Positions 17,571-64,000 of a stretch of DNA of 64,000 bases are shown one piece after another. Made by a program: the position numbers and the translations under genes. Source of the DNA: an uncultured delta proteobacterium. Lineage in GTDB: Bacteria; Desulfobacterota; Desulfobacteria; Desulfobacterales; UBA2156. Numbering within the stretch: the stretch's first letter is position 1; the number at the start of each line of letters is the position of its first letter. Location of the stretch: positions 192,001 through 256,000 of the forward strand of contig CAVTQK010000021.1 of NCBI GenBank assembly GCA_963736855.1, given 5' to 3'. The notes under the pieces are model-generated. The model worked only from the letters and a program-made list of their open reading frames with translations. It ran no database searches and had not been told where the DNA came from.

Positions 17571-17571
17571 G

Positions 17572-17981: not shown

Positions 17982-17996
17982 GATCAATGAAATTTT

Positions 17997-18131: not shown

Positions 18132-18132
18132 G

Positions 18133-18906: not shown

Positions 18907-18938
18907 TTAGAAATACTGGGAAAGGATCAGGGAGATTC

Positions 18939-20498: not shown

Positions 20499-20511
20499 CA
20501 GGAGGAAAGTT

Positions 20512-28478: not shown

Positions 28479-28744
28479 CCGTTCCACTTGCCTTTGAATC
28501 TCTCAGTCATTTAACGGTAGCCTTCGGCTTTTTTCATATATCGGTGAAACACAAAAACAGGGTCTGGTGAGGCTTCCAAACCAACGGCATTTTGGAGCCG
28601 AAGATCCGGCCACGGTTTCATTTCAACAGGGAAGACGTTTCTGAGTCGTGAAGGATGTCCGGCGGATTCTCCATGTATCTGATCAATTTCAATTTTTACC
28701 GAAGCCCGGGAATGGCCCCCTATGGAATCCGGGATGATTGAACG

Positions 28745-29533: not shown

Positions 29534-29628
29534 TGAAATCGTAAAAACTCAAAATTAGGATGGCAAAGTAAAAAGCTTCAGATGCAGTGCAACGCAGCAG
29601 ATGGACTTTTTACGAAGCCATCAAGCTT
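29526..29628. mobile_element. MITE/REP-like element with 25-bp imperfect terminal inverted repeats
   Basis: AAGCTTGATGAAATCGTAAAAACTC versus reverse complement of the right end AAGCTTGATGGCTTCGTAAAAAGTC (21/25). Internal third partial copy. Confidence 0.7.
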
Positions 29629-29640
29629 AGAGATTCGATA

Positions 29641-30528: not shown

Positions 30529-30563
30529 ACAGCTTCCCATTTTCTAAAAACCGGGGAATCCAG

Positions 30564-46465: not shown

Positions 46466-46495
46466 AAAAAAGGCAAAGCGGAAACCCGCCTTGCC
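46466..46495 (-). terminator. Intrinsic terminator of the Rieske/cyt b operon
   Basis: Minus strand GGCAAGGCGG-GTTT-CCGCTTTGCC-TTTTTT, 20 nt after the last stop codon. Confidence 0.75.
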
Positions 46496-46515: not shown

Positions 46516-47511
46516 TCAGCGCTTGAAATCCAACACCAGACTGCGAGTGGCCTTGGAATGGTCGGCGCCGCTATCATCAAAAACAGCGATAGCGAAGCTG
46601 AATCTCTTGCGGACGTCGAAGGCGACATCGTCTTCCTGGCCGGTGTTGAATTTTCGGTGCAGCATGACCGTCCAGCGGCCGGTGGCATACCGGCTGTCGA
46701 CCTTGACATCGAACCGTGATCCGCTCGGCTTCACGGGGAGGCGGTAGGGGATCACGTCGCCCGCCTTGAAGATAGAGTAGTCCGTGATGGGGACGGCTTC
46801 CTCCAGGAGCAAGAACCCGAGCACCGAAGGTTTGCGAGCAGGATCCTGCATGTAAAGCGGGTGGGAACCGTCGGGGGTTTCATTTTTAACATCCCCGCCG
46901 CTGCCCGCATCGTTTCTCCGGCCGGTTTCGCGGTAGGACCCGGACGGATTGCCCGCCACGGTGAGCCATCCGTCATCGGCATGTCGGTAGGGCGCCGAGC
47001 GAGCTGCCTTCCAATGCCAGAGATCGCCCTTTTCAGACGGGCTTTCCGTGGATAGGTTCCACTTGTTACGGGGCAGATCCGCCGGGCTATGACAGACGAC
47101 CGTACAGCTGCGCGATGAAAAATAGTTGATCCGTTCGATTTCAAACAGTAGCGCTATCCGGTCTTCGTCCCCCCTGAGGTGAACCCATTTTCCCCCGTCA
47201 AACTGCCACGACTCCTTGGTGACGCTGTAGGTCGGATCAGCCCAGCTGAGCAGGAAGTAAAGTTCGCTGTCCGTATAGAGGGCCCGGATCGAAACTATTT
47301 CCTTGACGTCGGCCATCTCCAGGCGGCCTGCAACAGGAACCTGACCCGGAGCGGCACGCTGCCAGGCAGGGTCATCGATCCCGGCCGGCGGTGTCTTGAC
47401 ATACCGGGCGGTTATCGTCATGACTCCGGCATCATCCGGAGAGGGTGCCGCCGCGAACACAATGGCAGCGCCCAAAAGTGCAGCGATCCCCGCGATCAAC
47501 CACTTAGACAT
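46516..47511 (-). CDS. Ethylbenzene-dehydrogenase gamma-subunit-related (EbdC/EB_dh, DOMON-like) heme-binding periplasmic protein 2
   Basis: Signal peptide; DDPAW, WADPT, EDRIALLF, SCTVVCH, DLWHWKAAR, WTVMLHRK, FAIAVFD. Confidence 0.75.
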   Translation of the reverse strand: MSKWLIAGIAALLGAAIVFAAAPSPDDAGVMTITARYVKTPPAGIDDPAWQRAAPGQVPVAGRLEMADVKEIVSIRALYTDSELYFLLSWADPTYSVTKESWQFDGGKWVHLRGDEDRIALLFEIERINYFSSRSCTVVCHSPADLPRNKWNLSTESPSEKGDLWHWKAARSAPYRHADDGWLTVAGNPSGSYRETGRRNDAGSGGDVKNETPDGSHPLYMQDPARKPSVLGFLLLEEAVPITDYSIFKAGDVIPYRLPVKPSGSRFDVKVDSRYATGRWTVMLHRKFNTGQEDDVAFDVRKRFSFAIAVFDDSGADHSKATRSLVLDFKR

Positions 47512-47531
47512 GGCCCACCTCTTTCAGTGCC

Positions 47532-48611
47532 TTAATGTTCAGGCGTCACGAAGTGCTCGATATACCCCATGACGGACAGAACCGCCACTGCGGCCAGAAC
47601 TAGTGCCGCCGCAACCATCACGCCTATGCGCTTGGAAGGACGGCGTTCGGACGTGCGGTCCAGGAAGGGCAACGCCCCAAGTAAAAATACCAGCCCCCCG
47701 GGAATGATCGCCGATCCGAGAACCATGAACGGGCCTTTAAAAATCGAGACCAGTTGGTTCAGAAACAACACCCACCACTCCGGGCGGGGAATAAACGCAG
47801 AATCGGTCGGATCGGCCGGATCACCCAAGGCAGCCGGCCATTGCCAGGCAACCAGGCCCAGTGCGATCGCCGACACAATAAGAACCGCCAGCCAGCGGTT
47901 GAAAATGGCCGGCATGAAAGGAACTTTCGGCCTTGGGGTCGCATTGGCCGACAGGGGTCCCGAAAGCCCCCGGGTCGCCATTAAATACAGGTGTAAGCCG
48001 ATCAGCAGAACGAGGGCGCAGGGCAACAGGAGGATATGCAGAACATAAAGGCGGGTCAAGGCGACGATTCCAGTCAGGGAGCCGCCGCGAAACAATTGGA
48101 CGAGAAAATCCCCGGCCAACGGAATGGAGCCGATGATGCTGAAGCGCACCTGGGTGGACCAATATCCTTTCTGGTCCCAGGGCAGCAGGTCGCCGGTGAT
48201 GATGAACAGCGGCATCAGCAGAAGAAACAACACTCCCGAGATCCAGACGAGTTGACGCGGCGACTTATAGGCTCCAACGACCAAAGCACGAAGCAGGTGA
48301 AGCCCCATGACCACCAGCAGGAGGTTCCAGGCATAGTGATGCATCCCGCGGACCACGTTTCCCAAAGGCAGGCTGAACTGAAAATAATCGACACTGTCAT
48401 AGGCTGTGCCCGGAACCGGGGTGTAGACAAAGGCCATCAATGCCCCGGAAAGGAACAGCAGGCAAATCAGCGCCAACTGCAGAGCGCCGAAGAACCGGTG
48501 CCAGCAGATGGTGTCGGCCGGTGCCTCCATCTGGAGCAGTTTTGCAAAACCTTCCCGGGCCGCTGCAACGGGCGATCTCTGTTCCGAGCCGTTAAACTCC
48601 GCTTTGGTCAT
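47532..48611 (-). CDS. petB: Cytochrome b of a Rieske/cyt b complex (unsplit b6 + subunit IV type)
   Basis: RGMHH and GLHLLR heme His, LPWDQKGYW, H-x14-H in helix D, PEWW (PEWY-like) Qo motif. Confidence 0.9.
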   Translation of the reverse strand: MTKAEFNGSEQRSPVAAAREGFAKLLQMEAPADTICWHRFFGALQLALICLLFLSGALMAFVYTPVPGTAYDSVDYFQFSLPLGNVVRGMHHYAWNLLLVVMGLHLLRALVVGAYKSPRQLVWISGVLFLLLMPLFIITGDLLPWDQKGYWSTQVRFSIIGSIPLAGDFLVQLFRGGSLTGIVALTRLYVLHILLLPCALVLLIGLHLYLMATRGLSGPLSANATPRPKVPFMPAIFNRWLAVLIVSAIALGLVAWQWPAALGDPADPTDSAFIPRPEWWVLFLNQLVSIFKGPFMVLGSAIIPGGLVFLLGALPFLDRTSERRPSKRIGVMVAAALVLAAVAVLSVMGYIEHFVTPEH

Positions 48612-48783
48612 AGCACTCCATCCCGGGTATCCGGTTGATCAAAAGGATAGAAAAACAAGCTACACACCGTCAGACCAGGCGCGCGGCATTTTGGAAAGCG
48701 CAGCATATTTAACGATATGTGAGCATTCCCAAACGCCGCGCAACGTCGGATCACATCTGGAGGCGCTATTTTTTAGCCTCTTG

Positions 48784-49774
48784 CTATTTCTTGAACTCGA
48801 GGGTCAAGACCTCTGAATCATACGAATCATGGTCCTTGGAGTCGTCGAACAACGCCATGGCGAAGCTGTATTTCTTCGTGGGATTAAAAGCCACATCGTC
48901 ATCGTGTCCCGGTGTCTATCTTGCGGGAGAGAATTACCGTCCATGTGCCGTCGGCATAACGGCTGACGGCCTTGATGTCAGCGAACGACCCTTCCGCGGC
49001 TACCGGCATCCTGAAAGTGACGACGTCGCCGGCCTTGAAGACTGAATAGTCGGTGATTTCAACTGCGTCCGCCGCCAGCAGGATGCCGTTCTTGCCGAAT
49101 TTCTTGCCCGGGGCAAGCATGTACATGGGTTTGGACTTGTCAGTGGTCATGTTTTGCTTGTCGCCGCCCTTGCCGTCATCCCCCTTACGGCCGCCCTTGG
49201 TGTCGCTGATTTTGGCCAGGTAGCCGTCATCGGCGTAGCCGGCAGGGTCGGAGCGGGCCGCCTTCCAGTGCCACAGGTCGCCTTTCTCGGCATCGGTCGC
49301 GGTCCCGAACTTGCCCTCCTTGGCGTTGGGCGCTCCCGGCGGGACGTGGCACGTCACCGCGCAGCCCTTGGTGGCGAAGTTGTTGATGCGGTTGATCTCG
49401 AACAGAAGCGAAATCCGGTCCTCGTCGCCCTTCAAGTGGGTCCAGGCCTTCCCGTCGAACTTCCAGGCCTCCTTGGTCATGCTCTGGGTGGCATCTTTCC
49501 AGTTGAACCAAAGGTAGATTTCATTGTCCGTAAAGACGGCTTTGGTGTTCACAGCCGTTTTTTTGCCCGCGAATATCTCCTTGCCGTCGAAGGGCACCTC
49601 GAGCGCCTTGATTTTCACCCACACGGGGTCATCCAGACCGGTGGGGGCGGCTTTCGAGTAAGCGGCGGTCAAGGTCTGTTTGGCGGCCCCAGTGACGTTG
49701 TTTGAGAAAAAAACCAAGCCAAGTACGCTCAGCAGGACACACGTCAGGACACCCAGTTTCATTGGTTTCTGCAT
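48784..49774 (-). CDS. EbdC/EB_dh-related heme-binding periplasmic protein 1, one apparent +1 frameshift near 48908
   Basis: Paralog of 46516 gene (EDRISLLF, GCAVTCH, DLWHWKAAR). Removing one G restores DTGHDDDVAFNPTKKYSFAMALFDD...LEFKK*. Confidence 0.75.
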
Positions 49775-49808
49775 CGAATACCTCCTTCGGCCCGATGCCG
49801 GGCGCGGG

Positions 49809-50321
49809 TTAAAGTGTAATTTGAACCAACAGCTTGCCCTCTTCTACCTTGTGCGGAAGGAGCGAAAGCGGCTTTTTCGGCGGTCCGGATGCCGGTTGTC
49901 CTTCCGGGTCGAACCGGCCGGTGTGGCAAGGGCACTCGAACATTCGGGTGTCTTTTCTCCAGATGACATTGCAGGCCAGATGCGAACAGATTGAAGAAAA
50001 GACTTTGACGCCGTGCTGGGCATCGGCCTTGGCCCAGACAAACCCCCGCTGTGGGAGGTCAACCCAGCCGTCCTTCACCATGAACTCAAAGGACAGCATG
50101 CTGAAATCATTCGGGGTCAGCATGTCTGCTTTGCCGAAATCGACCCATTTGCCGACGCCTTTTTTAAGAGAGGGGATAACAATGGTCGACACCATGGGGA
50201 TGGCCGCCAGAACGGCCGCGCCGCCTGCTAGAACAGAAGTCGTGATGAAGGTGCGGCGCGAAATGTTGAACTGATTTTCCACCGTGGGTTTTTGAGGAAG
50301 GGTGAGAGGGTTCTCGGCCAT
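49809..50321 (-). CDS. Rieske [2Fe-2S] protein with Tat signal anchor
   Basis: SRRTFI twin-arginine motif, CSHLAC and CPCHTG boxes, SGPP. Confidence 0.92.
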   Translation of the reverse strand: MAENPLTLPQKPTVENQFNISRRTFITTSVLAGGAAVLAAIPMVSTIVIPSLKKGVGKWVDFGKADMLTPNDFSMLSFEFMVKDGWVDLPQRGFVWAKADAQHGVKVFSSICSHLACNVIWRKDTRMFECPCHTGRFDPEGQPASGPPKKPLSLLPHKVEEGKLLVQITL

Positions 50322-50790
50322 GGCTATCCTGTTCTAGTTGATAGGGGCTCGCTTTTGGGGGGTCATCGGTTGCCTGAGGGCTTGATTGTGGTCCGGCTGC
50401 CTGCTTGCCCCAACATATGGGAACGCTGCTTCGCCCCCGACAACGGTCAGACCGATATCACCCACTTCCGTGGTTGTCAACAATGAACATGCGTCCGCAG
50501 AAATTCTCGGTGACTGGTTCCATGTGATTAAGCGAGGGACGAGGTAGGGGTCATCGGAAATTCCCCCACATATGGTGCATCGATGATTTAAGATTCATGG
50601 CCCGGGTCGCGTTTCGGTCGGTTGTATTCGGTTCCGAGGCTACTCCCGGTTGTGGTTCGGCAACTGCGCAGCACCTCCTCTGCACCGAGAAAGACCATAC
50701 CAGCGCATGCCAAAAAGCTTGGGGAGCTTCCCGACAGGCCCTGCTCAGCCATCCGCGCGGAGCAAAGAAAGAAATCTTCGGGAGGCCTGA

Positions 50791-53463
50791 TCAGGCGGCT
50801 TTCTCGATCCTCACGGCGCAAATTTTGTATTCGGGGATTTTCGACACGGGATCAAGCGCACCAATGGTTAACTTGTTCACCGCCGCTTCATAGAAATGGA
50901 ACGGCACAAAAGCAACGCCACGATCAGTAGTGTCCGAAACCAGAGTCTTTATTCTCAATCTTCCCCGTCTTGAGACGATATTGACGTATTCTCCGCTCGC
51001 AACACTCAGCGCCTTCGCGTCCTCCACATTGATCTCCGCCAATGCTTCGGGATAAAGACGATTCAAAGCGGTTCCTTTGCGACTCATCGTTCCCGTATGA
51101 TAATGCTGATGCACCCGCCCTGTCGTCAAAACGAACGGATATTCCGCATCGGGAAGCTCGGCGGGCGCTTTATAATCGATGGCGAAAAACGATCCTTTTC
51201 CCTTGGTAAAGCCTTTCATGTGCAGGACTGGAGTGCCTGGATGTTCCAGTGTTGGACACGGCCATGTCAAGCTTTCTTGATCAAGCCGATCATAAGTAAT
51301 ACCGCCATAACTTGGGGTAAGAGCATTGATTTCCGTCATGATTGCGGAGGGGTCCGCATAGTCCATCTCATATCCCATTTCCTTGGCAATGGCGGTGATA
51401 ATACGATGATCTTCCCAGGCTTCTCCGGGAGCATCCAATGCCTTGCGCACCCGCAACACCTTGCGCTCGGTGTTCGAGAAGGTCCCCTCCTTTTCAGCAA
51501 AACACGCACTGGGGAGAACCACGTCGGCAAGCTTGGCCGTCTCCGTTAAAAAAATGTCCTGCACAACAAGGAAATCCAATGCCGACAGGCTCTTTTCAAC
51601 ATGGTGCATATCGGCATCGCTCAGCATCGGGTTTTCGCCCATGATGTACAAGGCCTTAATGCCTTTCCCGGCTGCCGGAACCATCTCGGTAACGGTCATG
51701 CCAACTTTTCCCGGGAGTGAGGGCACCTTCCAGGCTTTGGCGAATTTGTCTCGTATGGCAGCATCGGTTACGGCCTGATATCCTGAAAAAACATTGGGCA
51801 AGCCGCCCATATCACATGCGCCCTGAACGTTGTTTTGGCCGCGAAGCGGATTGACACCGCCGCCCGCAACCCCGACATTTCCGCAGAGCATTGCCAAGGC
51901 GGCAAGAGACTTTACGTTGTCCGTGCCGGTGGTATGCTGGGTTATACCCATAGTGTATAGAATCGACCCGGGTTTTTCTGTTCCATACAACCGCGCCGCG
52001 GCAATCATAGCTTCTGCCGGAATACCCGTAATGCCGGACACATAATCAGGCGTATATTTAGCGACACACTGCTTGAGTTCTTCATAACCGGTTGTACGCT
52101 CATCAATGTAGCTCTGTGCTTGAAGGTTCTCATTGATGATTACATTCATAAAACCGTTTATCCAGGCCACATCTGTGCCGATTCTCTGACGCAGCCATAG
52201 ATGGCAAATATCCACCAGCTTGATCCTTCTCGGATCGACGACAATCAGCTTGGCACCGTTCTTCGTGACGGCTTCATGAATGTAGTTGGCAATAATAGGA
52301 TGGTTTGACGTGGTATTGGTACCGGTAATGAGAATGACCTTTGACTTCAATACATCCTGGAAGGGATTGGTCATCGCTCCGCTTCCAAACGTGGCGGCAA
52401 GCCCTGCCACCGTTGAGGAGTGTCAGAGACGGGCGCAGTGATCCACATTGTTGGTGCCGATCACCGCGCGCATGAATTTCTGAAACAGATAATTTTCTTC
52501 GTTGGTGCATCGAGCAGAAGAAAAACCCCCGATGGCGTCGGGACCATGATCGCTTTTGATCTGGCTGAACCTTCTGGCGATCAGGTCAAGGGCTTCATCC
52601 CAGCTGGCTGATTCGAACTGACCATTCCTCTTGATAAGCGGCGTGGTCAGTCGCTGATCACTAGCGATGAATTCATAGCCGAATCGGCCTTTGACGCACA
52701 GGCTGCCCTTATTGACGGCCACATCGCTCTTTCCGACCACACTCGCCACCCGATTGTCGAGAACATTGAGTTCGATTTGACACCCGCAACCACAATAGGT
52801 GCAGGTGGTGACCACCTTTTTGGTGACGAACCCTCTCGCCTTGAGTGGGCTGAGGTTCTCGGTCAGCGCCCCGGTCGGACAAACCTGCAAACATTCTCCG
52901 CAAGACACGCACTTCTCGGGATCCACCGTCAGTTTCAGCACCCCATCGGTATCGACAAATTCCAGCGCCCCCACACCCTTGATTTCTCGACAGGCGGAGG
53001 CGCAACGCTGGCAAAAGACGCAACGATCGCGCCAGTATTTAATCAAGGGAGTGGCATAGGCCACCTCAACCCTCTCCTTGGGCTCCTCATAGGCATCTGC
53101 TCTGACTCCTAATTCGAACACCAGATCCTGCAGCTTACAGGCACCGGCCTTGTCGCAGATCGGGCAATCCAGGGGATGATGGGCCAAGAGGTGCTGCAAG
53201 GATTTCCGCCGCATATCGGCGAGCATGTCCGAATTGGTCGCCACCGCCATACCGTCGGCCACCGAAGTCTTGCAGGCTTCCACCGGGGTGTCTTTGCCTT
53301 CGACTTCGACCACGCAGAGTTTGCAGGAGCCTATTGGATTCAATCGTTCATGGTAGCATAGGGTCGGTATCTTGATCCCCGCGTTCTTGGCCGCTTGCAG
53401 AATTGTGCTATCCTGCTGAGCGATGACTTCGTGACCGTCAATTGTCAACTTGACTGTGCTCAT
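50791..53463 (-). CDS. fdhA: Selenocysteine-containing formate dehydrogenase alpha subunit (Mo/W-bisPGD) with NuoG-like N-terminal Fe-S module, 890 aa
   Basis: The two ORFs are in the same frame, separated only by TGA at 52423-52425 in DHCARL-U-HSSTVAGLA. IPTLC, HPLDCPICDKAGAC, 2x CxxCxxC, CTYCGCGC, LRGQNNVQG, PEYK. No signal peptide. Confidence 0.92.
52393..52411 (-). promoter_or_regulatory. Bacterial SECIS hairpin
   Basis: GGTGGCA-GGGCT-TGCCGCC stem-loop beginning 11 nt after the UGA, same geometry as the E. coli fdhF SECIS. Confidence 0.8.
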
Positions 53464-53579
53464 TTTTATTTGCTCTCTTCGCTACCTGTTTATCACTCAC
53501 CCAAGACCTGCCGCCAAGCCTCGGCCCAGTTCGTGTCGGCTAATGATCCACAATCATTCCCGGAACCTTGGGCTTAGGC

Positions 53580-55058
53580 TTACAGCAAGGTCAGAAAGGA
53601 CAGTTTGACCATGGCAATATAAGTGGATGGAAAGAGCCCCAGCGACAACACACCATAAGCTGAAATGAAGATCGCGATCACCAGGGCCGGCGAAAACACG
53701 CTTGCCGGCATTTCTTTCTCGACGGCCGCTTCTGGAGCCTGCATATACATGGCAACGGTCACCCGAAGATAATAGTAAACCGACACCACGCTGTTGATCA
53801 CCCCAATAACGGCAAGGCCCACAAAACCTTCCTTGATCGCGGCGGAAAAGATATAGAACTTGCCCATAAAACCACCTGTGGGCGGAATCCCTGCCAGGGA
53901 AAACAAGAACAGGCTCATGGCCAGAGCTGCGATCGGATGCCGGTAACCGAGTCCCCTGAAATCTTCAATGTGGACTCTTTGTTCGCCCTTGCCGGCAAGC
54001 ACGGTGATCACCGCGAAGGCCCCGATATTCATACAGGTGTAGGCGAGCATGTAATAGAGGATGCTGGTGATCCCCTGCTCGCCTGCCGACAGGAATGCTA
54101 CCAGCACATAGCCAGCGTGGGCGATGCTCGAATAAGCGAGCATCCGCTTGATATTGTCTTGCACCAGGGCAATCACATTGCCGACGCTCATGGTCAGCAC
54201 GGCCATCACCCAGATCAGCATGGTCCAGTTGGTCTGCAGGGACGGCAGCGCTTCCATGAAGATCCGCACAAATGCGGCGAACGCCGCCGCCTTGGGCCCG
54301 GCGGACATGAACGCCGTAACCGGGGCGGGAGCGCCTTCATACACGTCCGGGGCCCACATGTGAAACGGCACCGAGGCAGTTTTGAAGCCGAAACCGATCA
54401 CCAGCAGTGCCATCCCCATGACGATGGTGGGCCCGCCGAAGCCGGCGGCGGCGATATACTTGGCAATGGCTGGAATCTTGGTGGTGCCGGTAGACCCATA
54501 GATCAGCGCGATGCCGTAAAGCAGAAAGCAGGTCGCAAACGAGCCAAGCAAAAAGTACTTCAGGGCCGCTTCGTTGGACACCATGCGGGTACGAGTATAT
54601 CCGGCCAGCACATAGAGCGATATCGACATCAGCTCAACCCCGAGAAAAATGGTGATCAATTCGGCTCCGCTCGCCATGATCATCATCCCCAGGGTCGCAA
54701 AAATGATGAGCGCATAATACTCACCATGTTGCATAGCTTCGTTATCCAAATACCTGATGGAAATGAGGATGGTCAGTCCAGTGCCGAGCAGAAAGATCAA
54801 TTTGAAAAAGCGGCAGTAATTGTCCACCACCCACATGTCATTGAAGGAATACGCGATTTCCCGGAGCTCGAAGCTCTGGGGCTGGGTTAAAACCACCGTA
54901 ACGGCGCCTATCACCCCGATCAGACTGACATAGCCGTAATAGCCCCTGAGCCTTGTGGGGGCAAAAGATTGGATCAACAGAATCAGCAACGAACAAACCA
55001 CCAGAATCAACTCTGGAGCTATGGCGCTCAAATTGATGCTGCTCATGACCTGTTCCAT
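53580..55058 (-). CDS. nuoN: NADH:quinone oxidoreductase subunit N
   Basis: SNEAALKYFLLG, PFHMWAPDVYEGAP, IKRMLAYSSIAHAGY, SLAGIPP, YYYLR. Confidence 0.93.
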   Translation of the reverse strand: MEQVMSSINLSAIAPELILVVCSLLILLIQSFAPTRLRGYYGYVSLIGVIGAVTVVLTQPQSFELREIAYSFNDMWVVDNYCRFFKLIFLLGTGLTILISIRYLDNEAMQHGEYYALIIFATLGMMIMASGAELITIFLGVELMSISLYVLAGYTRTRMVSNEAALKYFLLGSFATCFLLYGIALIYGSTGTTKIPAIAKYIAAAGFGGPTIVMGMALLVIGFGFKTASVPFHMWAPDVYEGAPAPVTAFMSAGPKAAAFAAFVRIFMEALPSLQTNWTMLIWVMAVLTMSVGNVIALVQDNIKRMLAYSSIAHAGYVLVAFLSAGEQGITSILYYMLAYTCMNIGAFAVITVLAGKGEQRVHIEDFRGLGYRHPIAALAMSLFLFSLAGIPPTGGFMGKFYIFSAAIKEGFVGLAVIGVINSVVSVYYYLRVTVAMYMQAPEAAVEKEMPASVFSPALVIAIFISAYGVLSLGLFPSTYIAMVKLSFLTLL

Positions 55059-55085
55059 AAATTATCGCCCTTGACCCTTGGCAAG

Positions 55086-56651
55086 CTATTGAAGGTCCAC
55101 TCTCGCAAACACATTGTTCAGCCGGCTCGGCTTAGCTCCGTCCAGGTGAGCAGTTATCTGCGGGTTCACCATCTCCAGGAGATGATCCACGGAAGCGTCC
55201 ATCGTCTTCAAAAACGGTTTAGGATATACGCCTATCCAGACAATGAACAAAACGATGGGCAGCAAATAGGCATATTCCCGCCCGGTCATGTCCTTCAGGT
55301 CCCGATTCTCAGCCTTGGTGATTTGGCCGTACATGACCCGCTTATACATCCACAGAAGGTACACCGCACCCAGGATCAAACCGATGGTGGCAACCAAACC
55401 ATAGCCCAGCGACGACTTGAAGGCACCTATCAGAATCAACAGTTCACCGACGAAGCCGTTGAGTCCGGGCACACCCATCGAGGACAAAGCCACCAGCAAG
55501 AACAGGGCCGCGAACGCCGGCATGACTTTCATGATTCCGCCGTATTCCGAAATGAGCCGGGTGTGGCGCCGTTCGTACAACATCCCAACAATCAAGAACA
55601 GTGCGCCGGTGCTCAAACCGTGGTTGATCATCTGGATCATGCTGCCCTTTAAACCGTCAGCGTTCAGAGCGAACATTCCCAGCATGCAGTAACCCAGATG
55701 ACTGACGCTTGAGTAGGCCACCAGCTTCTTGATGTCGTCCTGAGCGATGGACACCATCGCGCCGTAAATGATCCCCACCACTGACAGAGCCAGGACGATG
55801 GGCATGAAATCGATTGTGGCCTGCGGGAAAATCGGCAGGCAAAAGCGCAGAAATCCATAAATTCCCATCTTCAGCAACACTCCGGCCAGAATCACACTCC
55901 CCGCCGTGGGCGCTTCCACGTGGGCATCGGGAAGCCAGGTGTGGAACGGGAACATCGGCACCTTGATGGCAAAAGCCACAAAGAATGCCAGGAACAGCCA
56001 TATTTGAATGTTGCCCGGCAGACCCAGATTATAATAGTCGAGGATATCGAAGGTGTAGGTCCCGGTGGCCTTAAAGTGCATGAAGTAAAGGACCAGAATG
56101 GCCACCAGCATCAGCACGCTGCCGCTCATGGTGTATATGAAAAACTTGACCGCCGCGTAGATTCGCCGTGGCCCACCCCAGATCCCGATGATGAAATACA
56201 TGGGGATCAACATCACTTCCCAGAACACGTAAAAAAGGACGAAATCCAGCGCACAGAACACGCCGATCATCCCGGTTTCCAGGAACAGCAGGGAGGCCAT
56301 GTAGCCTTTCACCCTCTCCGTCACCGCCGTCCAGGTCGAAAGGATGGCCAGGGCGGTGAGAAAGGTGGTAAGCAGGACCAGCAACAGACTGATCCCGTCG
56401 ATGCCCATATGATAGCGAATGGCGAACTGGCTGATCCAGGGAACGTCTTCCACGAATTGCATTTCCCAGGTCCCGCTATCGAACATGAAATAGAGCGGCA
56501 GGGAAACCACAAAGGTTACCACGCTGGTACTGAATGCCACCCATCGTATCAGTTCATGGCGGGTGCTCTTGATCAGACAGATCGCAACAATCCCCACCAG
56601 GGGCAGATAGGTGATCAAGGACAAAATCGGCAAATTAATTATATTTATCAT
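55086..56651 (-). CDS. nuoM: NADH:quinone oxidoreductase subunit M
   Basis: [48 protein letters not shown]. Confidence 0.93.
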
Positions 56652-56655
56652 AGAC

Positions 56656-58423
56656 TCATATCAAGGAAGTAAATAAGTAGTAGCCGAGGATGACGACGCC
56701 GCCAATCAGCATCGTCGCCGCATAATTCCGAACCAGTCCGCTGGCGGTAACGCGGATCACGCCCGCCAGGCCAATGAAAAACTGAGCGACACCGTTAACC
56801 AACCCATCGATCGCACGGACATCGATAATCCGCGCGAGAAAACCGGAGAAGAACAGAGTGAAGCGGGTGAACCAGGTATCGTAAATGTTGCCCAAATAGC
56901 TATCGCTCGAAGCCAGCGGCTTTCTCGCGATCCACATGAATACCCGGCTTCCCTTGCGGTATACCCAATCGGTATCGATGCTGATGGTGGGTTCCGGATC
57001 GAGCTTTTTGAGCAGCATGAAAAAGCCCAGACCGGTGAACAGGAGGATACCCAAGGCGCTGGTTACATGATCACCGGTATAAGGTTCGAAGTGCACCGGA
57101 AAGGGAAGCAGGTTGTACAGCGGCCCGGGAAGCACACCGATCCCGATGCAAAAGAAGGCCGCCATGCCCATGGCCAGCAGCATATTAAGCGGCGGTTCCT
57201 TGGCTTCCAACCCGGAATCTTTACCAAAAAACATGTAGTAGGGAAGCTTCAAACCCGTGTGCAGGAATGTACCGGATGAGGCCATGGTCAGCAGTAGGGC
57301 CACCATCGGCCGATGGTCATGAGTGGCGCCGGAAACCACCATCGACTTGGTGACAAATCCACTGAACAAGGGGAAGGCCGAGATCGCAAACCCGCCGATC
57401 ATATAGAGCACCAACGTGATCGGCATGGTTCGGTACAAGCCTCCCAGTTCGGTGAGTTTCCTGCGCCCTGTCATTTCGATCACCGCGCCGGCTCCCATAA
57501 AAAGGAGGCCCTTATAGAGGATGTGGGCGAAGGCGTGGGACACCGAACCGTTCAGGGACATCTCCGTGCCGATCCCGACTCCGGCCACCATGTACCCGAC
57601 CTGACTGACTATGTGGTACGCCAGCAACCGTCTGCAGTCGTTTTCCAGCACCGCGTAAACAACCCCGTACAGGGCCATGATCGTTCCCAGATACACCAGC
57701 AGTTCAGTGCCTGGGAAAGACCCGCACCAAAACGTACACAGCCGTTTTGGTGGTGAATGCCGACATGAACACCGATCCGGTTACGGTCCCTTCCGGATAG
57801 GCATCGGTCAGCCAGGCGTGCAGCGGTGGCACCGCGGCATTTATAATAACCCCCACCAGCATCAGGTAGAAGGCCAGGCTGCCGTCTTGATCGAGAGGGC
57901 CCACCAGCATCGACTTGGTGCTGAGATAGTGGAGGATAATCCCTCCAAGCAGACACACACCGCCGAAGGTGTGCACCAGCAGGTACCGGTAACCGGCCCG
58001 GATCGCATCAGGTTCACGCCGGGCAAACACCAGATAGGCGGAAGCGAAGGCCATCAGTTCCCAGAATACGAACAGGGTCAAGTAATCCCCGGCGAACGTC
58101 ACCCCCAGCGCCCCTCCCACGTACAGGAAAGCGGCCACGTGCTGGCCCTGATCGTTCACGTGCAGGGCATACACGATGCCGATGAACGACATAATGGCGA
58201 AGACCCAGCCGAACACGATGCTGAGCTTGTCCACGGCACCGAAGGTCAGCACCATGCCAAGAAAGTCCCAGGACCAGAAGGTGCCCGCGGACATGGCGAA
58301 CACAGAAGCGACCCCGAGCAGGGGGATCAGCATCAGATAGGCTTTCCGCACCTTCCCGCGCAGAAATGGGATGAGAGCTGCTCCGAAAATGTAGAATACG
58401 GACGGGTGGAACCAATCAGTCAT
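56656..58423 (-). CDS. Mrp/NuoL-type antiporter-like subunit with NuoL-like C-terminal tail, one apparent +1 frameshift near 57712
   Basis: [35 protein letters not shown]-terminal [11 protein letters not shown]...SGLVRNYA. Removing one C gives [11 protein letters not shown]. Confidence 0.8.
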
Positions 58424-58673
58424 TGTAGTAATCCTCGCCCCGCATGACGCCGCACTGGTGGCCGATGAATTTAGAGACCAGAACGATAACAGCGCAGGCC
58501 ACAAACCCGTACAAGGCGCCCCATCCGGGCATCTTATCCCAGATATACATGGCATGCTCCCGGTGAACCAGAAAGTCCGCTACTACTGTAAGCCCCAGAG
58601 CCACGTAACTGAGCTTTTTCAAAGTGCCGGCATTTGCTGGGTTGCCTATGTAAAGGACGACCCTCTTGATCAT
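58416..58673 (-). CDS. Small two-TM membrane protein of the complex I-like operon
   Basis: 85 aa, PGWGALYGFVAC, MRGEDYY. Overlaps both neighbours. Confidence 0.75.
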   Translation of the reverse strand: MIKRVVLYIGNPANAGTLKKLSYVALGLTVVADFLVHREHAMYIWDKMPGWGALYGFVACAVIVLVSKFIGHQCGVMRGEDYYND

Positions 58674-60169
58674 CGGATCACCTCCCTGGCGAGACTCAGA
58701 AAGTAGTCGGGGAATATCCCGATCAATAGTGAGATGGTCGCAGTCAGCACCAGCGGCACCACCACCATCTTGATTTCCCTGACGTCCTCATGTTCGTGAT
58801 GGTCATGACCGGAGCCAGTGGCCACCGCCGCCACTCCCTTGTCCTTTTCGAAGAAGGCCTTGTAAGTGATGGGCAGAAAATAGGCTGCATTCAGGACCGT
58901 GCTGGCCAGCAAGACCATTAGTATGGGCACCGATCCGGACTCGATTGACCCCAGGGCCAGAAACCATTTGGTCGTGAACCCGGCGGCAGGGGGCACCCCG
59001 ATCATGCTGAGGGAGGCGATGAAAAACGCCGCCATGGTCCAGGGCATCTTCTTTCCGATACCGGAGAGTTGGCTGATTTCGGTCTTGTGCGCGCTGCAGT
59101 AAAGGGAACCGGCACAGAAAAACAGGGTGATCTTGGAAAAAGCGTGATTGGCGATGTGCATGATACCCCCCACCATGCCGCTCGGCGTCAGCAAGACCGC
59201 CCCCAGGATAACGTAGGAGAGCTGGCTCACGGTCGAATAGGCGAGCCGCGCCTTCAGGTTGTCCTTGGTGAGGGCGATGATCGAAGCGGTGATTATGGTG
59301 AAGGAGACCACATAAGCCGCGGTAATGCCGAGGTTGATGCGGCTCATCAAATCAATGCCATAAACGTTGAACACCACCCGCAGGATCGAAAACACCCCGA
59401 CCTTCACCACGGCCACCGCATGGAGCAGAGCACTGACCGGGGTCGGCGCCACCATGGCGGACGGCAGCCAGTTGTGGAAAGGCATCACCGCGCCTTTGGC
59501 GAACCCGAACAGGAACAAGAAGAAACCGACGAACAGGAGCCACGATCCCGGCTGATTGCTCAGCAGCCCATGGCGCTGGAAATCCGTCGTACCCGCCACC
59601 ATGTAAACGATGATGATACCGGACAGCAGAAAGGTCTTGGACATACCGAGCAGGTACAGGAAGTATTTCTTCGCCCCTTCCTGGGCTTCCGGCGTTTCCT
59701 TGTGACCGACCAGGGGCACCGTAGCCAGACTCAGGATTTCGTAGAAAGCGAACAGGGTCACCAGATTGGCGGAAAAGGCGACGCCCATGGTGGCCGACAT
59801 GCTGACCGCGAAGCAGCTATAGTAGCGGGTCTGTGCATGCTCCTTGCCGGCCCGCATGTAACCGATGGAGTAGCAGGTGGTAACGATCCAGAGGAACGAT
59901 GAAACCGTCGCAAATAGCAGGCCGAAGGCGTCGACTCGGAACTTGATATCGATCCCCTGGTAGAAGCCGCTCACCAGGGTGTATTCGATGTTGTGCCCGG
60001 AAAAGATAGCCGGCGCCATGGACATGACGATGGAAAATTTCACGACGCCGGCAAGGATGGACCAGAACTCGCGCACATTGGGCCGATCCGCGGTCCCCAG
60101 AATCAGTGGCACCGAAAGAAGAGACGCCAGCACGGCCAGCAATGGTTTTATGGACAGAATGGTTTCCAC
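58670..60169 (-). CDS. MrpD-like antiporter subunit (extra proton-pumping module)
   Basis: YSIGYM, FYEIL, PFHNWLPSAMVAPTPVSALLHAVAVVK, LAYSTVSQLSY, HAFSKITLFF. Confidence 0.85.
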   Translation of the reverse strand: METILSIKPLLAVLASLLSVPLILGTADRPNVREFWSILAGVVKFSIVMSMAPAIFSGHNIEYTLVSGFYQGIDIKFRVDAFGLLFATVSSFLWIVTTCYSIGYMRAGKEHAQTRYYSCFAVSMSATMGVAFSANLVTLFAFYEILSLATVPLVGHKETPEAQEGAKKYFLYLLGMSKTFLLSGIIIVYMVAGTTDFQRHGLLSNQPGSWLLFVGFFLFLFGFAKGAVMPFHNWLPSAMVAPTPVSALLHAVAVVKVGVFSILRVVFNVYGIDLMSRINLGITAAYVVSFTIITASIIALTKDNLKARLAYSTVSQLSYVILGAVLLTPSGMVGGIMHIANHAFSKITLFFCAGSLYCSAHKTEISQLSGIGKKMPWTMAAFFIASLSMIGVPPAAGFTTKWFLALGSIESGSVPILMVLLASTVLNAAYFLPITYKAFFEKDKGVAAVATGSGHDHHEHEDVREIKMVVVPLVLTATISLLIGIFPDYFLSLAREVIR

Positions 60170-60176
60170 GTTTTCG

Positions 60177-60479
60177 TTAACCTTTACTTAGATTGATTTC
60201 GTCCACGTTCACGGTCGCTTTGTTCCGGAAAAGCGAAATGATGATGGCCAATCCCACAGCCGCCTCAGCCGCAGCGACGGTCATGATCATGAACACGAAA
60301 ACGTGACCATCCAGGTTGTTGAGAAAGCGCGAGAAAGCGACAATGGTCAAATTGACGGCATTCAACATCAACTCGATGCACATATAGATGATCAAGGCGT
60401 TGCGTTGTGTGAACACTCCCACCGCGCCGATCGAAAAAAGCACAGCACCCAACATTAAGTATGAGTTCAATGAAACCAT
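60177..60479 (-). CDS. nuoK: NADH:quinone oxidoreductase subunit K
   Basis: [20 protein letters not shown]. Confidence 0.95.
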
Positions 60480-60508
60480 AGGCTACCATTCATGACCCGG
60501 ACGGCGAC

Positions 60509-61027
60509 TCAATCGCGCCCAGAGTCATCAATCCTCCTTTTGGCTAGGATGACCGCGCCGACAATTGCTGCGAGTAACAACACGGAGGCGATTTCGAAAG
60601 GCAACAGGTATTCGGTAAAGAGCATCTTCCCCACCGCCTTCGTGGTGCCGAACGCTTCGTCCACGTTCCCAAGCGCTGCCAGCGAACCGTTCGCCTGGAA
60701 CAGACTCACCATGGTAACCAGCAGCAAGCCCACCACCAACACGCCGAAGACTTGCAGCAGAATGACATTGCCTCCCAGTTTCCCTTCCTTTTCTTCCAGA
60801 TTGAGCAGCATGATCACGAACAGAAACAGCACCATGATGGCGCCGGCATACACGATCAGCTGCAGCACCGCGATCAGATGCGCATCCAGCAGCGCGTACA
60901 ATCCAGCTAGAAAGGACATGGTCGCGACCAGGCTCATGGCGGCGCGCACCGGCCTCTTGTTGGTCACCATCAGCAGCGCCGAGACCACGGCACCGACAGA
61001 GAAGGCGGAGAAAATCAATAATTGCAT
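60509..61027 (-). CDS. nuoJ: NADH:quinone oxidoreductase subunit J
   Basis: QLIVYAGAIMVLFLFVIMLL, YLLPFE. True start at ATG 61027. Confidence 0.92.
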   Translation of the reverse strand: MQLLIFSAFSVGAVVSALLMVTNKRPVRAAMSLVATMSFLAGLYALLDAHLIAVLQLIVYAGAIMVLFLFVIMLLNLEEKEGKLGGNVILLQVFGVLVVGLLLVTMVSLFQANGSLAALGNVDEAFGTTKAVGKMLFTEYLLPFEIASVLLLAAIVGAVILAKRRIDDSGRD

Positions 61028-61638
61028 TTGGAGTAAATCCTCCTGATGTATTCCAAACGAGCCTTCACACTGTCCTCGGGCCTGAGGAGTTGTTCTTTCG
61101 AATAACGCATGAGGCTCCGGTCCCGTTGCGCCAACCCCCGGTATTCCGAACTCATGACGATGGCCTCCTTCGGGCAAACCTCCTCGCAATAGCCGCAATA
61201 GACGCAACGGGACATGTCGAGGGTGTAGCTCAGCGGATAGCGATCGCCATCGGCCCTTTCCCCGGCCATGACGGTGATGGCCTTGGCCGGACACATTATT
61301 TCACACAGGCCGCAGGCCACGCATTTCTCGGCTCCGTCCAAACCGGCCACCAGAACCGGCCGACCGCGATACGCGGGAGGCAGCACGACCTGCTCTTCCG
61401 GATAGTAGACGGTGAACACCTTGCGCTTCTTGCCGGCCGGCGGGAAGACGAAGCCGATCATATTGATCACGAAATGCTTGCTGGTGACGTACAGGCCCCG
61501 CAGTACTTCGAAAAGGTACAGCTTCTCCCACAAGGTGAGCTCCACGTTCTTCCTCACCTTCTTGGGCTTCAGCGTAGCCGAAGGGACTCCCACCAGCGGA
61601 TGATATTGGGATTGCTCAGAACCTGTCATCTTGCTCAT
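61015..61638 (-). CDS. nuoI: NADH:quinone oxidoreductase subunit I
   Basis: YPEE, YRG, CVACGLCEIMCP, CVYCGYCEEVCP. Confidence 0.92.
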   Translation of the reverse strand: MSKMTGSEQSQYHPLVGVPSATLKPKKVRKNVELTLWEKLYLFEVLRGLYVTSKHFVINMIGFVFPPAGKKRKVFTVYYPEEQVVLPPAYRGRPVLVAGLDGAEKCVACGLCEIMCPAKAITVMAGERADGDRYPLSYTLDMSRCVYCGYCEEVCPKEAIVMSSEYRGLAQRDRSLMRYSKEQLLRPEDSVKARLEYIRRIYSKCNY

Positions 61639-62708
61639 AGCACCAGAACCACCAGCCCGGTTATCAGAATGTTGATGAGTGCAAGCGGCAGCAGCATCTT
61701 CCAGCACAGCCTCATGACCTGGTCGTAACGGAAGCGCGGAAGCGTCCAACGAATGGTCATTTGCAGCCAGATGAAGAAAATAATCTTGGCGAAGAAAGTG
61801 GCAACGTTCACCAGCATTGCCAGCAGGGCGGAGCCGTTTGGTCCCGCGAACTGGAACAGGGACAATAATTTCTGATCGCTCACGAAGGGGAGATGCCAGG
61901 CACCGAAAAACAGGGTGGTCACGATCCCACTGATGGTCACGATTTCCAGAAATTCCCCCATCCAGAACATGACGAACTTGAGGCCGCTGTATTCGGTGAA
62001 GTAGCCGGCCACCAGTTCCGATTCCGCCTCGGGCATATCGAACGGCACCCGCTTGTTTTCGGCAATGGCGCAGGTGATGAACAACACAAAACCAAGAGGT
62101 TGGAGAAAAATGCCCCAGTGGAAGAAATTTTCTTGCAGGGCCCCGATCTCTGTGAGCCGCAGGGAACCGTACACCATGATCACACCGATGATGGTGAGGC
62201 CCATGGCTACTTCATAGGAAAGCATTTGCGCCGACGCCCGCAAGCCGCCCAACAGCGACCAGTTGCTGCGCGAAGACCAACCGGCGAGGACCACCCCGTA
62301 GGTGGCGAGCGAGGCCAGAGCGAAAACGAACAGGATGCCCACATCCAGGTCGGCGATCACCAGGTTGACACGATGCCCGAACAGATCGTACTGGCCGCCG
62401 AAGGGAACCACACTGAAGGTGACAATCGCCGGAACCAGACAGATGAACGGCGCCAGGGTATGGAAGAACTTGTTGGCGCCGCTGGGGATGAAGTCTTCCT
62501 TAGCGAGGACCTTGATGGCGTCGGCGAGGGAATGGAACAGGCCGATCGCGGTGAAGCCGAAGATGGCCGCCCGGTTCGCGCCGATCCGGTCCTGCATCAC
62601 CGCGCTTTGCTTTCTTTCGACCCATCCCAACACGGGGGCAAAAAAGCCCAGGTTTACGCTGAATACGAATATAATTTTTGCAAGGGACTCGATCAGGTCT
62701 GCAACCAT
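61635..62708 (-). CDS. nuoH: NADH:quinone oxidoreductase subunit H
   Basis: ERK, QDRIG, GGLRASAQMLSYE, PFDMPEAESELVAG, RWTLPRFRYDQ. Confidence 0.95.
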   Translation of the reverse strand: MVADLIESLAKIIFVFSVNLGFFAPVLGWVERKQSAVMQDRIGANRAAIFGFTAIGLFHSLADAIKVLAKEDFIPSGANKFFHTLAPFICLVPAIVTFSVVPFGGQYDLFGHRVNLVIADLDVGILFVFALASLATYGVVLAGWSSRSNWSLLGGLRASAQMLSYEVAMGLTIIGVIMVYGSLRLTEIGALQENFFHWGIFLQPLGFVLFITCAIAENKRVPFDMPEAESELVAGYFTEYSGLKFVMFWMGEFLEIVTISGIVTTLFFGAWHLPFVSDQKLLSLFQFAGPNGSALLAMLVNVATFFAKIIFFIWLQMTIRWTLPRFRYDQVMRLCWKMLLPLALINILITGLVVLVL

Positions 62709-62710
62709 GG

Positions 62711-63901
62711 CTATCTATCGCATTCTCCGCCGATCATGTTGATCATGTCGAATGTGGGGACGATATCGGCGATCAGCCTCCCCTTCATCAGCCTGGGCAT
62801 GGCGGCGGTGAGGGCAAAACAAGGCGGTCTTACCCGGCATTTGTAGGGCTTCCCGCTGCCATCGCTCACAAGATAGAATCCGAGTTCGCCGTTGGCTCCT
62901 TCGACGGCCGCATAGACCTCGCCGGGAGGCGGCTTGATGCCATCGATAACAGTCTTGAAGTGAAAGATCAGGGAATCGATCCGATGGTAAATGTCTTCCT
63001 TGGGCTGCATCCGATATTGCGGCAGGTCGAGATTGATGGGTCCGTCAGGAAGTTGGCTCAAGGCCTGCTCGACAATCCGCATGCTCTGTTGGATCTCTTC
63101 CATTCGCACCAGGTACTTGTCGAAATTGTCGCCCTTCTCACCGATCGGGATCTCGAAATCCATCCGATCGTAAACCAGGTACGGCTGCGCCCTGCGCACA
63201 TCGTAAGGGACCCCGCAGGCCCGCAGGCAGGGGCCCGTAAATCCATAAGCGATGGCTTCGTCCGCCGGAATGACCCCGACATCTCTCACCCGGTCGATGA
63301 AGATCCGGTTCTTGGTCAGGAGCTTGTCCACATCCTCCCACAAGCGCCGGCACTCCTTGAAGGCCAGCCGGGTCTTTTCCTGAAAGCCGTCGGGCAGATC
63401 ATTCTTGAGACCGCCGATCCGTACATAGTTGACGGTGACCCGCGCCCCACACAGCATCTCGATCAGGTCCCACACCAGTTCCCGCGCTTCCACAAAATAG
63501 AGGAAGGCGGTGAAGGCGCCGAGTTCGAGCCCGCTGGCGGCGACATTGGTTAAATGATCGGCGATCCGCGACAGCTCACAGGCGATCACCCGCAGATACT
63601 GGCACCGTTCCGGGACCTCAATGCCGATCAGCTTTTCCACCGCCAGCGCATAGCCCACGTTGTTGATCAGGGGCGATACGTAATTCAGCCGGTCGGTGTA
63701 AGGGATCACCTGCTGCCAGGTGCCGTTCTCGCACATCTTCTCGAACCCCCGGTGGAGGTACCCGATGTCCACCTTGAGATCGACGATGGTCTCCCCGTCG
63801 AGGGTCGCCAGGAACTTCACTGTGCCATGGGTCACCGGATGCGACGGACCCATGTTGATCACCATGTGTTCGGTGTGCAGATCTTTGGCTAAATCGGACA
63901 T
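62711..63901 (-). CDS. nuoD: NADH:quinone oxidoreductase subunit D
   Basis: NMGPSHPVTHG, GYLHRGFEK, DRLNY, GELG, GECDR. No NiFe CxxC pairs. Confidence 0.95.
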   Translation of the reverse strand: MSDLAKDLHTEHMVINMGPSHPVTHGTVKFLATLDGETIVDLKVDIGYLHRGFEKMCENGTWQQVIPYTDRLNYVSPLINNVGYALAVEKLIGIEVPERCQYLRVIACELSRIADHLTNVAASGLELGAFTAFLYFVEARELVWDLIEMLCGARVTVNYVRIGGLKNDLPDGFQEKTRLAFKECRRLWEDVDKLLTKNRIFIDRVRDVGVIPADEAIAYGFTGPCLRACGVPYDVRRAQPYLVYDRMDFEIPIGEKGDNFDKYLVRMEEIQQSMRIVEQALSQLPDGPINLDLPQYRMQPKEDIYHRIDSLIFHFKTVIDGIKPPPGEVYAAVEGANGELGFYLVSDGSGKPYKCRVRPPCFALTAAMPRLMKGRLIADIVPTFDMINMIGGECDR

Positions 63902-63925
63902 GTCTCGAAACGACCCGTTGGAGTG

Positions 63926-64000
63926 TTAATTAACCGGCCCGATTAAGGGCTGCCTCTTTTTAATGGGATAGTCCTTCCGCAAGGGATGCCCCTCGAAGCC
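63926..64000 (-). CDS. nuoC: NADH:quinone oxidoreductase subunit C, 3' end only
   Basis: Hand translation GFEGHPLRKDYPIKKRQPLIGPVN*. Runs off the window edge. Confidence 0.85.
   Translation of the reverse strand, partial: GFEGHPLRKDYPIKKRQPLIGPVN

Follow-up and report, generated by a model that had tools for sequence, protein, structure and literature searches.

We analysed a stretch of DNA of 64,000 nucleotides from an uncultured delta proteobacterium (GCA_963736855.1, contig CAVTQK010000021.1, forward-strand positions 192,001-256,000), referred to below as the window, and in particular the locus at its positions 46516-64000. The genes nuoA to nuoN of this locus, together with the selenocysteine (Sec) formate dehydrogenase gene fdhA behind them, are, with a probability which we put at roughly 0.6, a conserved operon for a complex I on which FdhA would dock at the place of NuoG, giving an ion-pumping formate:quinone oxidoreductase. 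A wider reading, to which we give somewhat less than even odds, is that complex I is fed only by an active Sec formate dehydrogenase standing in the place of NuoG, in enzymes with three- as well as four-antiporter arms; such an enzyme would be a living intermediate of complex I evolution and, for sulfate reducers, a formate-driven pump and a quinol-dependent CO2 reductase driven by the ion gradient, combined in one reversible enzyme. The genome carrying the window is called G000 (rated 100% complete) and its contig with the window C21; other G codes are genomes of relatives, L codes are mapped loci, and X1, X5 and X20 are sequencing runs. The proteins of the locus were matched to Pfam and NCBIfam (TIGR, PRK) families with the cut-offs of the families.

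All genes of the locus are found on the minus strand, in the order nuoC-D-H-I-J-K-mrpD-like-orf85-nuoL-like-nuoM-nuoN-fdhA-Rieske-EB_dh-cytb-EB_dh. The first unit consists of nuoABCDHIJK, mrpD-like, orf85, nuoL-like, nuoM, nuoN and fdhA, without nuoEF. An earlier interpretation made from the letters of the window (the sequence-only reading) had pointed to the right of the window as the place to look for nuoAB and nuoEF: nuoA, nuoB and most of nuoC are there (C21:255926-257358; PF00507, PF01058, PF00329), the 3' end of nuoC lying in the window (63926..64000, PF00329), and no nuoEF was found up to C21:257358. Within the cluster (C21:238519-257358) there is no nuoE, nuoF or nuoG. The 11 core subunits A, B, C, D, H, I, J, K, L, M and N are all present, the L position being occupied by Mrp-type subunits. 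The cluster therefore differs from the canonical 14-subunit NADH:quinone oxidoreductase, as it has neither nuoE nor nuoF and its FdhA keeps the catalytic motifs. NuoD (62711..63901; TIGR01962, above the cut-off) has no NiFe CxxC motifs and hence, by sequence, is not of the group 4 hydrogenase type; an identity as a group 4 hydrogenase or formate hydrogenlyase (FHL) was excluded on the same ground. It also keeps a His/His/Tyr set, which we take to be the quinone-site residues. Since the NiFe ligands are missing, the acceptor is taken as quinone.

Concerning the formate dehydrogenase, fdhA (50791..53463) follows nuoN (53580..55058; TIGR01770) after a gap of 116 bp (53464-53579) and encodes 890 amino acids, with selenocysteine at position 347 (Sec347). 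Its N-terminus is of the NuoG type, with a [2Fe-2S] motif, a His-ligated [4Fe-4S] motif and two further [4Fe-4S] motifs, and carries the NuoG-type HPLDCPxCD segment; the molybdopterin domain is intact, with its own [4Fe-4S] motif, CARL-U-H and RGQNN, which brings the total to five Fe-S motifs. No signal peptide was seen. The Sec codon TGA (52423-52425), in CARL-U-H, is followed by a SECIS-like element (codon and element at 52370..52428, minus strand), whose match to SECIS_3 (52428-52370; E 1.5e-11) scores 58.6 bits, under the gathering score of 63. The tRNA-Sec is present in G000, and a single in-frame TGA is found at the Sec position in all 16 checked FdhA homologs which have a catalytic motif. 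Over its full length the protein matches the FdsABG-type formate dehydrogenase of PDB entries 6tg9/6tga (E 1.6e-207). Judged by the Sec-His motif, the Arg, the proximal [4Fe-4S] motif, the SECIS element and the tRNA-Sec, FdhA is a Sec formate dehydrogenase of the FdhF/FdsA type.

The arrangement of nuoN followed by fdhA, with a gap of 33-175 bp, is found in 20 other genomes of two classes. Searched with NuoN, the order gave matches in 20 of 401 genomes (E<=1e-100) and the phylum in 105 of 401 (E<=1e-135). Apart from G000 and a partial match in G108, close NuoN orthologs (63-90%) numbered 12 and 3 in the order and phylum searches, respectively, with one metagenome locus in addition. In 10 of the 16 orthologous clusters found via NuoN alone fdhA lies directly behind nuoN, and the MrpD-like/NuoL-like arm is present in all clusters of NuoN orthologs long enough to show it. 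In the metagenome scan, with 80 loci kept of at least 596, only L134 was orthologous, and it has no fdhA behind nuoN. A search with the FdhA N-terminus, in which only 7 and 3 candidates were scored per genome so that misses are possible, gave 17 of the 401 genomes of the order, 16 of these being among the 20 with a strong NuoN match, and 43 of 122 genomes in the class of G710. There, 11 new best matches were examined (10 behind nuoN, one at a contig edge), and the 8 weaker matches examined by their flanks were all of a stand-alone paralog. Among 28 other genomes with an FdhA of more than 60% identity, 26 have it in or beside nuo genes, one at a contig edge and one not beside nuo. In a FastTree phylogeny (39 sequences, 887 columns, midpoint root; matches of fewer than 550 aligned residues, the frameshifted paralog of G000 and the later hits of the class were left out) the 18 FdhA proteins of the nuo-linked type, 17 of them in or beside nuo, form one clade (support 1.0), which is separate both from the stand-alone paralogs and from the majority of the degenerate NuoG proteins. 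The gene dsrA is present in 26 of the 27 searched genomes with this FdhA type. Such a gene inside the complex I genes, or immediately after them, occurs in many sulfate-reducing bacteria. The conserved object is likely a complex I with a selenium formate dehydrogenase as input subunit, and this is the part of the sequence-only reading, a formate dehydrogenase feeding a four-antiporter complex I, which is upheld by conserved synteny; the Rieske/cytochrome b half is not, as described below.

The position of the gene in other operons bears on how FdhA and complex I meet. FdhA of the same clade (62-63%) is encoded between nuoD and nuoH in the three-antiporter operons of G113 and G187, that is, in the nuoG slot, and these operons have no nuoEF; in G369 and G033 it stands directly after nuoD, at contig ends. 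In complex I the His-ligated cluster of NuoG passes electrons to NuoI; the extra cluster of FdhA, missing in ordinary NuoG, would join the catalytic site to that wire. From the synteny, FdhA is predicted to dock where NuoG normally sits, and electrons would pass from the Mo/W-Sec site along the clusters of FdhA, then by way of NuoI and NuoB to the quinone at NuoD/H. We infer that FdhA takes the place of NuoEFG in a reversible formate:quinone oxidoreductase, its docking and activity being predictions. In reverse, quinol would drive CO2 reduction for the Wood-Ljungdahl pathway. It is quite improbable that FdhA is merely co-regulated with a complex I of the 11-subunit type which receives electrons from ferredoxin or another soluble carrier, with no stable contact between the two. 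Four-antiporter clusters without an adjacent input gene do exist (G685, G253, L134), and exchangeable donors have been proposed for eleven-subunit complexes in the available parts of PMC3144371 and PMC11238625; against this, two to four genomes with another type of operon encode FdhA precisely in the nuoG slot, and its clade is near-strictly associated with nuo genes.

Several points weigh against a complex I with FdhA docked as its input. The docking is a prediction from synteny, and the counts of carriers are not independent, the genomes being kin and the cassette looking horizontally spread. The HPLDCP segment is not diagnostic of nuo-linked FdhA, because a clade of stand-alone paralogs (about 50% identical), mostly away from nuo genes, shares it. 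In the NuoL-like subunit, the Lys of transmembrane helix (TM) 7 is replaced by Asn in 19 of 19 orthologs matched, and G000 yielded no known pathway to menaquinone. Six of 26 other four-antiporter clusters have no fdhA behind nuoN. Among the exceptions, G304 has fdhA, then a flavoprotein with a NuoF-type Fe-S domain and then nuoA, G266 has a flavoprotein upstream of nuoA plus a degenerate NuoG, and G183 has a flavoprotein upstream of nuoA with fdhA elsewhere; in G253, G685 and L134, too, fdhA is not behind nuoN. Finally, NuoF-type proteins are encoded elsewhere in 22 of the 25 carriers searched, and also in G000 itself, which has three such genes, and could bind FdhA.

These last points lead to another arrangement, which we consider rather unlikely: FdhA docks on complex I and also binds a flavin module encoded elsewhere (NuoEF/BfuBC or a flavoprotein of the NuoF-domain/GltD-like kind), in a three-way formate/NAD(P)H/quinone complex which is possibly bifurcating. 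The [2Fe-2S] domain is the one that binds NuoF in complex I and in FdsABG, and FdhA retains it, with cysteines invariant in 17 sequences. The flavoprotein is co-encoded in G304, G183, G266 and G523, the three NuoF-type genes of G000 fit as well, and a further exception, L265 (G635), combines in one operon a complete nuoEFG with a GltD-like gene and the gene of a degenerate FdhA, which belongs to the nuo clade but lacks the catalytic His and Arg. A close match to the flavoprotein N-terminus (at least 42%) is, however, found in only 9 of 23 genomes, and not in G000, G005, G293, G274, G298, G213, G131, G359, G113, G187, G369, G033, G710 or G631; the NuoF-type genes of G000 have NuoG-like neighbours of their own. 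Also, no PF10589 (NuoF-type) gene of any kind is present in G005, G293 and G187 (94, 98 and 97% complete), three of the 25 carriers searched, and therefore FdhA in these is not part of a NAD-linked FdsABG enzyme. A complex I with FdhA as its own input remains the reading that we prefer.

Some observations on these genes stand by themselves. The flavoprotein next to nuoA in L219 (G304), L213 (G266) and L220 (G183) has 655 amino acids with the domains NADH_4Fe-4S, Fer4_20 and Pyr_redox_2, and is a candidate for an NAD(P)H input module replacing NuoEF. L269 (G523) contains a fully degenerate NuoG, on a long branch next to the active clade, and a NuoF-domain/GltD flavoprotein in the nuoEF slot; G635 and G523 form an apparent decay series. 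L339 (G813), from another class, carries a nuo-fdhA cassette which is 80-96% identical to that of G000, as close as that of G005 from the same genus, which suggests a recent horizontal transfer. G000 has a second NuoG-type fdhA (C13:4453-7134) with several frameshifts and an in-frame TGA, probably of the stand-alone paralog type; in G131 and G213 an fdhA paralog of this type is found divergently beside nuoA.

The remaining complex I genes are nuoH (61635..62708) and nuoK (60177..60479), both found by profile match, nuoI (61015..61749; two [4Fe-4S] motifs, probably starting some 40 codons further in), nuoJ (60509..61294; Pfam match at residues 105-250, true start further in) and nuoM (55086..56651; TIGR01972). 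Between nuoK and nuoM lie an extra MrpD-like antiporter subunit (58670..60169; PRK08375.1-1, 701.6 bits against a cut-off of 663), orf85 (58416..58673), which encodes an 85-amino-acid membrane protein with no Pfam or NCBIfam match and accompanies the two Mrp-like genes in both nuo and mrp operons, and the NuoL-like antiporter subunit (56656..58423). The latter belongs to the PRK12668 family, which is the best family for both halves of the gene, split by an extra base at 57712. The MrpD-like ortholog of G005 (94% identical) keeps the full Glu/Lys/Lys/His/Lys set; the TM5 Glu/TM7 Lys pair is not kept in all four antiporter subunits, and the C-terminal lateral helix of the NuoL-like subunit is not lengthened. 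Because of the Asn for the TM7 Lys, five charges, and with them a fifth pumped proton, appear doubtful; with the unlengthened helix in addition, four antiporter genes do not show five protons. Both Mrp-type subunits group in a tree with Mrp-operon genes of relatives, and for this reason Na+ coupling is not excluded.

Concerning energetics, potentials of -420 mV for formate and -74 mV for menaquinone are given in the available part of PMC9304861. With these values, formate yields a computed 692 meV per two electrons versus 492 for NADH, which suffices for four charges against at most 173 mV or for five against at most 138 mV; the enzyme would therefore work near equilibrium and be reversible. 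Menaquinone, the carrier named in the sequence-only reading, could not be traced in the sequence: of its pathway genes, mqnA and mqnC were not found in G000 and menB was below the cut-off. The genome contains three UbiA-family genes, and it has no futalosine or classical menaquinone marker despite the many quinone enzymes that it encodes. An alternative menaquinone pathway has been proposed for some Desulfobacterota.

The second unit of the locus comprises, also on the minus strand, a Rieske [2Fe-2S] protein (49809..50321; twin-Arg motif, box II CPCHTGRF), EB_dh-family protein 1 (48784..49774; CxxxCH motif, extra base at 48906), a cytochrome b fused to a subunit-IV-like part (47532..48611; four heme His candidates, PEWW) and EB_dh-family protein 2 (46516..47511; CxxxCH motif), followed by a terminator-like hairpin of 10 pairs with a T run (46472..46495). 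The features of a Rieske/cytochrome b complex are present: the box I/II ligands, the twin-Arg anchor, four heme His and the Qo motif. The EB_dh proteins match PF09459 at 144 and 161 bits (cut-off 33). Heme b of the EbdC type is bound non-covalently, with Met/Lys ligands. The Lys of WHWK is conserved, but CxxxCH is invariant in both EB_dh proteins and in 27 of 27 aligned homologs, which suggests that this may be an atypical covalent heme c site instead. A search of PDB sequences with EB_dh protein 2 gave only a weak match to NxrC (E 0.18). The EB_dh proteins may be the cytochrome c1/f equivalents of a widespread Rieske/cytochrome b complex.

Searches for EB_dh homologs gave 19 of the 101 relatives and, in the genome collection, 7 loci; of the 23 loci mapped, Rieske, two EB_dh and cytochrome b genes occur together in 16 distinct places, in two gene orders. 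The four genes are likely a separate conserved unit for a quinol-oxidising complex. The sequence-only reading had taken the whole 17.5-kb run as one dedicated chain from formate through complex I, menaquinone, Rieske/cytochrome b and the EB_dh hemes to a periplasmic acceptor. The gene order, the 469-bp gap, the terminator and the Sec fdhA which it described are all confirmed in the sequence. The single linked cluster is not found in related genomes, the outcome that had been set beforehand as counting against it: in 14 other loci whose upstream sequence reaches 1.5 kb or more, none has a co-oriented nuo or fdhA gene before the Rieske module (one of these loci breaks off at a contig end behind cytochrome b; three further loci start at most 0.5 kb from the Rieske gene and fall outside this test), and in 18 other nuoN-fdhA genomes whose sequence continues for 1.6 kb or more beyond fdhA, no gene of the module is found there. 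G005 and G274 fall outside the downstream test, the contigs of G005 ending inside fdhA and inside the Rieske gene. Of 22 genomes that carry this type of complex I or of FdhA, moreover, only 3 were found to have an EB_dh homolog (G000, G005 of the same genus, and G369). The link between fdhA and the Rieske gene is seen only in G000 and near-identical strains.

The gap itself (50322-50790) has no strong terminator. It contains a 152-bp copy (50346..50496, minus strand) of a sequence that lies 360-510 bp before nuoA; the copy is 89.5% identical to it and includes TTGACA. The gap also holds a 45-bp remnant (50551..50595, minus strand) of a flavin-reductase-like gene that lies upstream of nuoA. The 152-bp element has only two copies in G000, at 50346-50496 and C21:257718-257868, which are direct repeats flanking the nuoA-fdhA block, and in G005 it is found upstream of nuoA. 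X1 and X5 retain no more than roughly the initial 50 bp of the copy, TTGACA included, and a TATAAT-containing stretch follows. The duplicated and remnant DNA thus points to a local, lineage-specific rearrangement and a separate promoter, and the Rieske operon would have a promoter of its own, possibly related to that of nuo. We consider a single dedicated chain highly improbable on account of this gap and of the synteny. In its favour, the genes are co-oriented and adjacent in near-identical strains with no strong terminator between them, and the shared 152-bp element could bring the two units under common control in G000. The Ser and Tyr of box II mark high-potential Rieske proteins, and the box II found here has neither, which fits a low-potential quinol. 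As far as can be told from the sequence, the complete chain is likely an adjacency limited to this lineage, and a claim for it would not extend to other organisms; in G000 both units could share the quinone pool, like any two quinone enzymes of one cell.

No clear match to the 152-bp element was found upstream of Rieske or nuoA genes in 15 other loci; the best was G213 (39 against a shuffle maximum of 28), the others being within or at the edge of the shuffle range. A known RNA family was rejected for it, with no Rfam match at E<=0.1 and no fold common to the two copies. Directly before the element upstream of nuoA lies a 72-bp repeat (C21:257869-257940) with 7 near-full genome copies, REP- or MITE-like. 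The Rieske module of L078 and L114 (G041) has as its neighbours on the opposite strand a full soluble-type fdhA and a 36-amino-acid fdhA-like fragment. The octaheme protein at 7837, put forward earlier as a possible terminal enzyme, has 8 CxxCH motifs and lies 37 kb from the module; it is near the Rieske module in no locus examined. A homolog is present in 11 of 16 module-bearing genomes (E<=1e-30), and a close one in 7 of 16, counts which have no background control and are evidence in neither direction.

Mis-assembly as the cause of the adjacency was excluded, since X1, from a relative with about 98% identity, has a single 9.3-kb contig that reaches from nuoM through the last EB_dh gene. Compared with their orthologs, the NuoL-like gene and EB_dh gene 1 have one extra base apiece (57712 and 48906). 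The orthologs being intact, genuine gene splits were rejected, which leaves assembly error or recent mutation; another X1 contig is without the base at 57712, so that this base at least probably arose by an assembly error or very recently. The one RNA run, X20, has a few short contigs at a small share and permits no conclusion on expression.

In the rest of the genome, G000 has dsrA, acetyl-CoA synthase, two oxidases of the cbb3 type and one of the bd type. There are also two additional nuo clusters lacking nuoEF (C21:166280-180854 and C17:18123-28868), the first followed by a 1200-amino-acid fusion of NuoG-like, GltD-like and molybdopterin domains. A cluster like alternative complex III is joined to cbb3 oxidase genes (C17:212675-221978) in this dsrAB-bearing genome, and a second cbb3 cluster (C15:779644-784251) is frameshifted. 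The window also contains, at 15091-33083, two aldehyde:ferredoxin oxidoreductase-like genes, cytochrome bd genes and bzdQ-type benzoyl-CoA reductase genes, and at 40048-40997 an epimerase-like gene apparently split over two frames, which fits the other single-base indels of the assembly.

The comparison with known systems refers to the available parts of the papers cited. Four-antiporter complexes are already known (PMC7419157, PMC7117926). Green complex I of rhizobia has two MrpD-like subunits in place of NuoL (bioRxiv 10.1101/2021.11.15.468770); the locus shares the two Mrp-type genes between nuoK and nuoM, the four antiporter-like subunits and the unlengthened helix. By that definition, which involves no phylogenetic comparison with the rhizobial complexes, its arm matches Green complex I, but its input gene is an intact Sec formate dehydrogenase without nuoEF, an input not described in what is available of that work. 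The 2M complex I, as papers citing Chadwick et al. 2018 relate, reportedly also has four antiporter-like subunits, with extra pumping proposed. The locus is like it in that number but has no second nuoM and no amphipathic-helix insertion in NuoL, and a 2M-type complex was excluded on these grounds; a two-nuoM cluster with a clear C-terminal helix insertion in NuoL is found in L212 (G010) of the same family.

The 12-subunit complex I of Campylobacter and Helicobacter has NuoG without NuoEF, with flavodoxin as the proposed donor, and the C-terminal part of its NuoG has lost catalytic conservation (PMC3144371). The locus likewise has a NuoG-like twelfth subunit and no nuoEF, but the C-terminal part of its FdhA keeps the Sec, His and Arg motifs. 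Fpo/Fqo (F420H2) and the Geobacter-like Nuo-Bfu also combine a complex I core with an exchanged input module (PMC3144371, PMC9304861), Fdh-Bfu and Nuo-Bfu being separate types (PMC9304861). Unlike in these, where F420H2 or NADH plus ferredoxin serves as input, the locus would take in electrons from formate/CO2, at a molybdopterin site. In FHL, protons are reduced at a NiFe site and FdhF is linked through separate ferredoxin-like subunits. The E. coli FHL (PDB 7z0t) is similar in that a Sec formate dehydrogenase feeds a complex I-like membrane enzyme; it differs in that the NuoD of the locus has no NiFe ligands and its FdhA a fused NuoG-type domain. The soluble NAD-linked FdsABG has the same domain layout in its alpha subunit, but no FdsB/FdsG genes lie beside fdhA in the locus, where nuo genes are found instead. 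With b6f-like complexes, the second unit shares the Rieske protein, the four-His cytochrome b and the PEW motif, and it differs by two CxxxCH EB_dh proteins in the place of cytochrome c1/f.

An active formate dehydrogenase as complex I input was not found described in the literature searched, to which subscription papers mostly did not belong; Chadwick et al. 2018 and its supplements may bear on novelty. A Kuenenia gene cluster reportedly annotated as formate:quinone oxidoreductase, which the literature search did not confirm, would be a possible precedent. For the Rieske/EB_dh complex, too, no description was found in the searched and available text, including that of PMC5600118. Neither appears in the available parts of PMC12361115, PMC11238625, PMC4046663, PMC8165549, PMC10553843, PMC5600118, PMC10654088, PMC3578206 and bioRxiv 10.1101/855817.

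NuoG is regarded as the descendant of a molybdopterin enzyme, for example a formate dehydrogenase, whose catalytic half has decayed (PMC3144371, PMC7419157, in their available parts). A family of operons with this half intact, and sometimes in the nuoG slot, makes the idea directly testable. If the proposed enzyme exists, it would be a new input module of complex I beside those for NADH, F420H2, ferredoxin and flavodoxin, and sulfate reducers with the Wood-Ljungdahl pathway would gain energy conservation on cytoplasmic formate, or quinol-driven CO2 reduction.

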